From: an uncultured Candidatus Saccharibacteria bacterium
Lineage (GTDB): Bacteria; Patescibacteriota; Minisyncoccia; Phycocordibacterales; UBA918
Assembly (NCBI GenBank): GCA_964643955.1
Contig: CAZXUO010000002.1
Coordinates: 110,691-161,874 of the forward strand
Reading direction: 5' to 3'
DNA: 51,184 nt
The notes under the pieces were generated by a model that saw only the letters and a program-made list of their open reading frames with translations, did not search any database and was not told the origin of the DNA. Shown one piece after another: positions 34,085-34,972 of the stretch (positions within the stretch are counted from its first letter, which is position 1; the number at the start of each line of letters is the position of its first letter). A program made the position numbers and the translations under genes.

Positions 34085-34105
34085 AAAAAGTCCCCAGAAG
34101 GGGAC
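34085..34105 (-). terminator. Terminator downstream of tRNA-Asn
   Basis: GTCCCC-agaa-GGGGAC with a T5 tail on the minus strand. Confidence 0.75.
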
Positions 34106-34164
34106 ATTTTCTTTTCACTCACTCGGCTCCGCGGGTAGGATTCGAACCTACGACCAATGCGTTA

Positions 34165-34742
34165 CTCGTGCTCCACTACTTTCGTAGGGTGAGGACTATA
34201 TCATCACCCTTTATGAGGGTGCGAGGCGCTTCCCATTTCAAACATTTGAAACAGTACTCCGTAAAGGATAGTCTCTGAACCTTTCCCAATTTGCATCGGG
34301 ACTTGGCTGCTGATTACCCTCGTCTGATTACGTTAGGGCTTCCAGCAATTCACCTCGTTTTCATTCCTAGGTTTCCCTAGGAAGCTGCGTAATGCCGCCA
34401 TGAATTTCTCTGTGACAGTTTGCACACACAAGAATGCATTTGTCTGCTTCGGCTTTAATCTTTTCCCACGATCTCGTGAGACCTTGCATCGCTAGTCCAA
34501 ATTCTTTCTTTGAACCATCGATATGGTGCAGATCAAATGCTCCAACGTACTTCTTGTAGCCGCATACCGTACAGGAACCCCCTTTATATTCAACGACCAT
34601 TTCCTTTAGCTTTTTTCTTCGCTTGGCAACGGCGTTGATGAGGTATTCTCGGCGGTCGGAATATGTTCTCTTTTCAATTCGCTTCTGTGGCATACCTAAT
34701 AAAGTATACCGCAGCAGTATTGTTGAATAAGAACATGAGTTC
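34165..34742 (-). mobile_element. Group I self-splicing intron (578 nt, IA-like) at anticodon position 35/36
   Basis: P AATTGCTGGAAG (34350-39), Q AATCAGCAGCC (34315-05), R GTTCAGAGACTA (34280-69), S GATATAGTCC (34202-193), P3 CGAGGTG/CGCCTCG, P7 GACTA/TAGTC, GAAA-capped P2 and P9, terminal G; upstream exon ends in U. Confidence 0.93.
34367..34693 (-). CDS. Intron-encoded HNH endonuclease (putative homing endonuclease), 108 aa
   Basis: CTVCG...DLHHID...CILVCANCHREIH; TATACT 9 nt before ATG 34693. Confidence 0.88.
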   Translation of the reverse strand: MPQKRIEKRTYSDRREYLINAVAKRRKKLKEMVVEYKGGSCTVCGYKKYVGAFDLHHIDGSKKEFGLAMQGLTRSWEKIKAEADKCILVCANCHREIHGGITQLPRET

Positions 34743-34777
34743 ACAGCGCACTGCTCTACCACTGAGCTACCGCGGAA

Positions 34778-34915: not shown

Positions 34916-34972
34916 GAGGCATTGTACCCGAAAAAAACCAGTGTTCAAGCGCCATGATATAATAGTGCTGAT

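Follow-up and report, generated by a model that had tools for sequence, protein, structure and literature searches.

Can a tRNA gene whose anticodon is interrupted by several hundred nucleotides of inserted sequence be the gene on which a bacterium relies to decode asparagine? The question is raised by a 51,184-nt stretch of DNA, referred to here as the window, which belongs to contig CAZXUO010000002.1 of assembly GCA_964643955.1 from an uncultured Candidatus Saccharibacteria bacterium (Patescibacteriota, UBA918). A preliminary description of the locus had proposed a tRNA-Asn(GUU) gene split inside the anticodon by a group I intron, and did not include the 108-aa HNH reading frame that fills most of the insert. 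From the analysis presented below we conclude with high confidence that the tRNA-Asn(GUU) gene is functional and carries a mobile group I intron between U35 and U36.

Anatomy of the Interrupted tRNA-Asn Gene

The gene lies on the minus strand, and its parts and flanking signals are as follows.

34921 to 34948, minus strand: promoter-like site of the tRNA-Asn unit (TTGAAC-16-TACAAT), from a consensus scan; conserved in G003, an intronless genome of the same genus
34743 to 34776, minus strand: tRNA-Asn exon 1 (positions 1-35, ending C32 U33 G34 U35), from the sequence and ARAGORN
34165 to 34742, minus strand: group I intron of 578 nt, from G+1 to the terminal omega-G, from Rfam RF00028 and homologous introns at the same site in 68 loci
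34127 to 34164, minus strand: tRNA-Asn exon 2 (U36 to discriminator G73), from the sequence and ARAGORN
34090 to 34105, minus strand: intrinsic-terminator-like hairpin and T-run, 22 nt past the tRNA 3' end, from a sequence scan

Exon 1 reads TCCGCGGTAGCTCAGTGGTAGAGCAGTGCGCTGT (34776-34743), with the 3' end ...GCGCUGU, and has the same letters as the 5' part of the uninterrupted tRNA-Asn gene in two genomes of the same genus, G001 and G003. The intron runs G...GAG (34742-34165) and is followed by exon 2, TAACGCATTGGTCGTAGGTTCGAATCCTACCCGCGGAG (34164-34127), which opens with UAACGC; the CCA end is only partly encoded at the 3' end of the tRNA, where the next letters are CCG. Joined, the exons give a 72-nt RNA that ARAGORN folds as tRNA-Asn(gtt), the anticodon stem containing a single G.U pair, and the coordinates first proposed for the exons, the intron and the tRNA proved exact. 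The assignment of the insert to group I is borne out by the Rfam model RF00028 (Intron_gpI), which matches 34412-34173 of the minus strand over the whole core (model positions 1-253) with 87.9 bits (E = 3.6e-21), the gathering score being 50. In 68 other independent assemblies a tRNA-Asn gene is split at the same phosphodiester bond, and the acceptor and anticodon stems formed there from exon to exon are complementary at 10-12 of 12 pairs despite their different sequences; the match to a group I intron in tRNA-Asn is therefore not a chance one.

The TTGAAC-16-TACAAT block is the probable promoter of the tRNA-Asn unit. Two hairpins occupy the leader. The first (34894-34859, minus strand), whose 16-bp stem pairs perfectly (GTGCCTCGCGGTATGC-ATCC-GCATACCGCGAGGCAC), is missing in the intronless G003, and the second (34845-34824, minus strand) is common to the window and G003. 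Overlapping this second hairpin, at 34852-34840, 13 nt of the tRNA start are repeated (CCATTCCGCGGTA), and G003 has this copy too. Both of these features are therefore unlinked to the intron, and we rejected the suggestion that insertion of the intron or of the endonuclease had left the 13-nt repeat (34852-34840 and 34780-34768) and the hairpins of the leader behind as scars, given that the intronless G003 has the repeat and the second hairpin.

Splice Site and Guide Sequence

The position of the splice site was examined through the pairing of the exons with the internal guide sequence.

34384 to 34392, minus strand: internal guide sequence, from the sequence; guide conserved, +1 pair covarying

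The guide GCAGC (34388-34384) pairs with GCUGU of exon 1, which gives a U-1.G wobble at U35, and is invariant in all 32 aligned cores. The guide C at 34389 pairs with intron G+1, and this +1 pair covaries: it is formed in 54 of 66 distinct introns by six types of pair (G-C in 27, A-U in 13 and C-G in 8, together with U-A, U.G and G.U). A P10 pairing of UUA (34392-34390) with UAA of exon 2 can also be drawn and would agree with splicing at U35/U36; the UUA is present in the window but in only 11 of 66 relatives. The uninterrupted allele of G001 and G003 reads ...GCGCTGT followed directly by TAACGCATTGG... and is identical to the joined exons, in a comparison that covers the tRNA up to nucleotide 52, where both contigs stop. 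Taken together, the wobble at U-1 in P1, the covarying +1 pair and the uninterrupted allele place the splice site between U35 and U36, so that the insertion between anticodon positions 35 and 36 proposed earlier stands on both P1 and the intronless allele. The boundaries, CU GU/UAA, fit the intron class Asn.4Ug: they fall after the fourth nucleotide of the anticodon loop, with U at -1 and G at omega.

A second placement of the same 578-nt intron, 2 nt further upstream, would make the gene a tRNA-Thr(AGU), with exon 1 ending ...GCGCU and exon 2 starting AGUAAC. Its boundaries (34745 and 34167) likewise follow a U and end in G, so that this rule alone cannot choose between the two placements, and it is the shifted one that ARAGORN reports in intron mode, as tRNA-Thr(agt) i(33,578), with the intron 2 nt too far upstream. 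After the shift, however, U-1 would face the A of GCAGC and the conserved U.G wobble would be lost. The tRNA body has U1-A72 and G73, which are identity features of tRNA-Asn, the uninterrupted alleles of the same genus read CTGTTAA, and threonine is already served in this genome by Thr(UGU), Thr(CGU) and Thr(GGU), whereas there is no other Asn tRNA. The geometry of P1, the identity features of the tRNA and the intronless allele led us to reject the tRNA-Thr reading as extremely unlikely. The chance that the locus is a chimera, the insert having been joined into the tRNA gene by the assembler, is negligible: the locus is interior to a 162-kb contig, the same junctions recur in the 68 independent assemblies, which come from many projects, and the intron carries a guide complementary to its own exon.

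Structure and Subgroup of the Ribozyme

For the ribozyme, 32 distinct cores from relatives were aligned from the guide sequence to the terminal G. RNAalifold recovered P2, P3, P4, P5, P6/P6a, P7.2, P8 and P9 from this alignment, with compensatory change in 30 of 42 pairs. The full structure, including the P7 pseudoknot and P7.1, was then written out, and its pairs were counted across the 32 cores. Standard pairs are found in 86.4% of cells, as opposed to 34-44% with the partners slid by 1-3 columns, and 39 of 61 pairs show compensatory change; the observed values were reached in 0 of 500 shuffles. P6 and P7 are invariant across the cores and thus uninformative for covariation. Every core position that is invariant in the family is retained in the window intron, whose elements, all on the minus strand, are the following.

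34731 to 34742, minus strand: P1 extension hairpin (GAAC-UCAU-GUUC) at the intron 5' end, from the sequence; equivalents in L004, L011 and L012
34364 to 34383, minus strand: P2 hairpin of 8 bp with a GAAA loop, containing the ORF stop codon; compensatory changes in 8 of 8 pairs
34222 to 34357, minus strand: core from P3 to P3'; covariation of P3, P4, P5, P5a and P6a
34357-34351 with 34228-34222, minus strand: P3; covaries
34347-34342 with 34313-34308, minus strand: P4; covaries
34339-34336 with 34319-34316, minus strand: P5, with a 3-bp P5a inside its loop; both covary
34307-34305 with 34281-34279, minus strand: P6, with a 4-bp P6a inside; P6 invariant, P6a covaries
34273-34269, minus strand: P7 5' strand; invariant
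34268-34266 with 34260-34258, minus strand: P7.1; kept in the 25 cores that have letters there
34254-34247 with 34240-34233, minus strand: P7.2; compensatory change in 7 of 7 scored pairs
34221-34216 with 34210-34205, minus strand: P8, followed by J8/7; from Rfam and the core alignment
34198-34194, minus strand: P7 3' strand; from Rfam and the core alignment
34187-34176, minus strand: P9 with a GAAA loop; from Rfam and the core alignment
34165, minus strand: omega-G; a terminal G in all 68 same-site introns

The short P5 that had been noted from the sequence amounts to 4 bp plus the 3-bp P5a. P9 contains a C.U mismatch in the window intron, and the 3' tail of the intron is ...GAG, as against the usual ...GUG in related introns. 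Extra hairpins before P3', described earlier as IA-like, are indeed present: P7.1 and P7.2 fill 34268-34233, between P7 and P3', and P7.2 covaries. IC3 introns have no helices in this region, and the window intron departs from them here; judged by the P7.1/P7.2 hairpins, the sole IA feature assessed, it appears IA-like and not classical IC3. In the alignment of Williams (10.1101/2020.01.27.920355), the P7-P3' region is empty in the IC3 rows, and helices are present there in the Asn.4Ug, Lys.2Ug, Phe.2Ug, Leu.1Ug and tmRNA rows. Among the relatives, the introns of L005, L014 and L021 have a 60-75-nt insertion between the P4 strands (A1 columns 46-116), which may be an extra peripheral domain; all other cores pass directly from UUG to CUGG at that position.

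An HNH Endonuclease Reading Frame in the P1 Loop

Between the hairpin at the 5' end of the intron and the guide sequence, and thus in the loop of P1, the intron holds an open reading frame preceded by a promoter-like element.

34367 to 34693, minus strand: HNH homing-endonuclease ORF of 108 aa in the P1 loop, from ATG at 34693 to TAG at 34369-34367; PHROG 2255
34703 to 34708, minus strand: -10-like box TATACT, 9 nt 5' of the HNH start codon, from the sequence; recurs in relatives

The ORF matches PHROG 2255 ("HNH endonuclease") with an E value of 1.2e-29. Its score against the Pfam HNH family is 18.9 bits, under the cut-off of 21.4, and a PDB sequence search with the protein returned nothing significant. 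All 31 residues that are invariant in an alignment of 14 relatives are retained, including the CxxC, HH and CxNCHxExH motifs, and the invariant HNH motif residues (C41, C44, H56, H57, C90, N92, C93, H94 and H98) make up a His-Me finger motif (HH...N...H) with paired CxxC zinc ligands.

The reading frame and the ribozyme share sequence. The last codons of the ORF, ACG CAG CUU CCU (T-Q-L-P), serve at once as guide and as the 5' side of P2, and the stop codon lies within the 3' strand of P2. A C-terminal TQLP or TQPP is retained in the intronic relatives of the HNH protein and not in the free-standing ones, a pattern that fits a double constraint on those bases. At the other end of the gene, 58 of the 78 distinct loci have an in-frame -10-like hexamer, most often TGGTATACT, at a distance of 6-12 nt (mode 9) from the start codon; the hexamer is TATACT in 37 of these 58, and TG is found at the extended -10 position in 39. 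The box is present in intronic and free-standing copies alike, and its recurrence suggests that the HNH gene has its own promoter and a near-leaderless mRNA.

Distribution and Mobility of the Intron

A homologous intron is present at the same site in 20 of 61 relatives, and many of the others have an uninterrupted gene. The introns in the loci fetched from relatives range from 236 to 625 nt, most of them being ORF-less and about 250 nt long. All four genomes of the same genus are without the intron. One of them, G003, matches the window at 79.5% identity over 1.5 kb upstream and shares its leader and promoter-like block. Given that the congeners lack the intron and that G003 shares the leader, the intron would seem to be a recent gain in this species, or else to have been lost in all four congeners. 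The contigs of G001 and G003 that carry the uninterrupted gene (G001:C80 and G003:C46; L105 and L106) both end exactly at tRNA-Asn nucleotide 52, right before the T-loop. These ends are likely an assembly break at sequence common to other tRNAs, and strain heterogeneity at the locus in these two genomes is possible.

To survey the phylum, we searched 401 evenly drawn genomes with the pattern P7'-P9-G/UAA followed by the tRNA 3' half. The pattern matched in 67 of the 401, about 63 of which look genuine by eye, and a reversed control pattern gave about 22. The intron thus appears to be common in the phylum, at roughly one in six of the sampled genomes. A few genomes have two matches, namely G186 (C7 and C10), G255 (C1 and C11) and G246; those of G186 are identical to each other, and each lies at a contig end.

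The Only tRNA-Asn Gene Found in the Genome

The assembled genome amounts to 883 kb in 30 contigs, with a completeness of 96% and a contamination of 0.2%. ARAGORN finds 37 tRNAs for 19 amino acids in it, and asparagine is the one missing. A search of this 96%-complete assembly for a second tRNA-Asn with ARAGORN, blastn-short and an anticodon-arm regular expression found none, in keeping with the earlier supposition that the interrupted copy might be the only one, and the closed 1.1-Mb genome of a relative (G024, one contig) has an interrupted copy alone. Since there is no other tRNA-Asn in a 96%-complete genome, asparagine decoding should depend, and very probably does depend, on splicing of the intron.

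In its default mode ARAGORN reports no tRNA anywhere in the window, and the expectation that standard finders would miss the gene holds for ARAGORN, the one finder run. Its intron mode reports a second "tRNA-Asn" on contig C20, which we discarded as a false positive on account of its mismatched stems, its long extra arm and the 38.5% GC of the contig. The element in question (G000:C20:5560-5631) is tRNA-like, and lies at the end of that 38.5% GC contig (the window has 51% GC). Its acceptor-like stem (GGGGCGT/ACGCTCC) has 7 bp and its T-arm is canonical, but normal D and anticodon arms are lacking; it may be foreign DNA. The same genome has a second group I intron, within the 23S rRNA gene (G000:C6:38500-38779; L002 1424-1780), which scores 45 bits on RF00028, slightly below the gathering score.

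Proposed Mechanism and Alternative Explanations

In the mechanism that we propose, the unit would be transcribed from the promoter about 145 nt upstream and would end at the terminator hairpin. The intron would fold as a ribozyme with P1-P10, GNRA loops on P2 and P9, and the extra P7.1 and P7.2, and pairing of the guide GCAGC with GCUGU of exon 1 would hold U35 in the U.G wobble. Free guanosine would attack 3' of U35, the terminal G (34165) would enter the G-binding site, and ligation of the exons to CUGU^UAA would yield the sole tRNA-Asn of the cell. Transcription of the HNH gene in the P1 loop would probably start from a -10 box of its own and give a near-leaderless mRNA, and the HNH protein, by analogy with other intron-encoded HNH enzymes, would cut or nick intronless tRNA-Asn DNA, with repair from the intron-bearing copy leading to spread of the intron (homing). 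The presence/absence polymorphism within the genus and the strict association of the HNH family with tRNA-Asn lend indirect support to the expectation that the HNH protein should act in homing. In this scheme the anatomy of the locus, its covariation, the polymorphism for presence or absence and the want of a second gene are observed, and splicing and the activities of promoter and endonuclease are inferred.

One alternative is that the interrupted gene is a disabled relic and that asparagine codons are read by another tRNA-Asn in the unassembled ~4%. Strictly speaking, an assembly in 30 contigs that is 96% complete leaves room for such a gene, and the G001 and G003 contigs break inside tRNA-Asn, so this region can drop out of assemblies. 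A relic would nevertheless not be expected to retain all of the family-invariant core positions, or exons identical to the intact gene of a relative; the closed G024 has the interrupted copy alone, and an arrangement shared by about 63 of 401 genomes of the phylum is unexpected for a dead gene. We regard this alternative as very improbable. It is also conceivable that the intron is real and that its splicing in the cell needs a protein helper, either the HNH protein as a maturase or a host chaperone. Dependence on proteins in the living cell is known for many group I introns, P9 is imperfect in this one, and the 3' end of the ORF overlaps the guide and P2, so that translation and folding compete. 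Most relatives, however, have an intron of about 250 nt that shares this core and has no ORF, which rules out the HNH protein as a general cofactor. Maturases are known among LAGLIDADG proteins and, to our knowledge, not among HNH proteins. The need for a helper is thus improbable in our estimation, and self-splicing from the only tRNA-Asn gene found remains the reading that we prefer.

The HNH Gene as a Possible Separate Cassette

The HNH protein has 265 relatives in a collection of species-representative genomes, the best 80 of which are 56-81% identical to it. The labels of these genomes are mostly those of Patescibacteria (among them Lloyd-, Zambryskii-, Kaiser-, Woese-, Roizman-, Curtiss-, Berkel-, Doudna- and Gracilibacteria, and Saccharibacteria); a few are labeled Gammaproteobacteria, Pseudomonadales or Limisphaerales, and here we suspect errors of binning or naming. 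Among the loci of the best 80 of the 265, 73 have the HNH gene within or next to a tRNA-Asn that is split at 35/36, 2 have it next to an intronless tRNA-Asn, and for the last 5 no tRNA-Asn could be placed in its vicinity. About 59 of the 73 HNH genes are intronic, and about 14 are free-standing beside an ORF-less intron. The free-standing genes are found upstream of a tRNA-Asn with an ORF-less 35/36 intron in L023, L024, L025, L028, L037, L046, L057, L072, L081, L082 and L090, and downstream of one in L030, L035 and L015/L083. They are on the same strand as the adjoining intron-bearing tRNA-Asn, and this layout would be expected if an endonuclease and an intron were spreading together unfused.

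At L036 (1313-1384) and L075 (1816-1887) an intronless tRNA-Asn stands beside a free-standing HNH gene. If the HNH enzyme cuts intronless tRNA-Asn, self-cutting would follow at these two loci unless the enzyme is inactive or its site is different. Decayed copies of the exons were sought near the free-standing genes, and only two short remnants were found. The one in L075 lies upstream of the HNH gene and consists of 13 nt from the D-arm/anticodon stem; in L035, 11 nt of the tRNA 3' end recur on the downstream side of the gene. Two remnants were too little to build on.

The ribozymes at the 35/36 site are themselves varied. By the 5' strand of P7 there are at least three flavors of core, UCAGAGACUA (that of the window intron), GUAGAGACUA and GCAGAGACUA, with a median spacing of the P7 strands, where both could be located, of 82, 54 and 67 nt, respectively; P7.1 and P7.2 are established for the UCAGAGACUA cores only. 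Close relatives of the HNH gene occupy the P1 loop in all three flavors. On a tree of the HNH proteins built from 94 columns, which is poorly resolved and has 7 starred branches, the intronic or free-standing state needs 12 changes and the core flavor 13, both counts being rough. One well-supported clade mixes the free-standing L025, L028 and L037 with the intronic L026 and L027, and the window HNH protein is placed next to it. From these patterns we tentatively suggest, at somewhat less than an even chance, that the HNH gene is an autonomous cassette, consisting solely of the -10 box and the near-leaderless ORF, that targets the anticodon-arm DNA of tRNA-Asn and moves independently of the ribozyme.

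Discussion

The suspicion that the 35/36 site might not be new was well founded. Williams (bioRxiv 2020, 10.1101/2020.01.27.920355) extended the four classical settings of tRNA introns to 21 and lists among them a class Asn.4Ug, with the seed sequence Pam37.Asn.4Ug. This class has the same tRNA, the same 35/36 site, the U at -1 and the terminal G of the window intron. Its seed, like the window intron, has helices between P7 and P3', and shows local P7-P9 sequence similarity to cores of the window-intron family. The seed is an ORF-less intron of 276 nt and is closest to an L070-type variant (Saccharibacteria / Saccharimonadales labels), not to the window intron; Asn.4Ug is catalogued only in that preprint, with no description of the HNH gene. 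A 2025 preprint by Nakagawa et al. concerns, by its title, a novel group I insertion site in tRNA genes of Patescibacteria, and so shares, as far as the title tells, both phylum and subject with the present intron. Lui et al. (2021) remarked that, in their circularised metagenome-assembled genomes, the detection of some tRNAs was hampered by group I introns. Our literature search found no peer-reviewed description of the tRNA-Asn 35/36 intron class. The tRNA-Asn intron element is already catalogued and common in the phylum, and the present locus is a good fresh example of it, not a discovery; the part with the most remaining potential is the HNH gene behaving as a separate cassette.

The classical IC3 tRNA introns are those of cyanobacterial tRNA-Leu(UAA) and tRNA-fMet, Azoarcus tRNA-Ile(CAU) and alpha-proteobacterial tRNA-Arg(CCU). 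The window intron resembles them in its anticodon-loop location, in its small core with P2 and GNRA loops on P2 and P9, in the U.G at the splice site, and in the reliance of the sole gene of an essential tRNA on splicing. It differs from them in that it interrupts another tRNA at another bond, has the P7.1/P7.2 that IC3 introns are without, and encodes an HNH protein; the endonuclease encoded by the Synechocystis fMet intron is of another kind. A likeness for the HNH gene is found in phages, where free-standing homing endonucleases and ORF-less introns are said, in work attributed to Bonocora and Shub and to Zeng et al. 2009, to act together in "collaborative homing", and a path has reportedly been proposed by which endonuclease genes invade introns. 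Here too, close relatives of one HNH protein are found both within introns and free-standing beside a tRNA-Asn with an ORF-less intron at the same site. The phage cases concern protein-coding genes, whereas the presumed target here is a cellular tRNA gene.

For the organism, the entire supply of tRNA-Asn would have to go through a ribozyme reaction, as it does for classical cyanobacterial tRNA-Leu. Genomes of such Patescibacteria seem to be without tRNA-Asn when ARAGORN is used, which can distort inferences about completeness and codon usage. Beyond a clean and recent gain the locus itself adds little, but the four congeners without the intron, one of them with identical exons and the same leader, provide a convenient natural pair for a homing assay. 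If the HNH gene is indeed a cassette that moves on its own, the HNH family would preserve living intermediates in the merger of an endonuclease gene with a self-splicing intron into a single mobile element, and any intron at 35/36 would amount to "immunity", in that it breaks the enzyme's own target. With the same cassette in several types of ribozyme as well as free-standing, the family offers a tidy system in which to study the association of endonucleases with introns.
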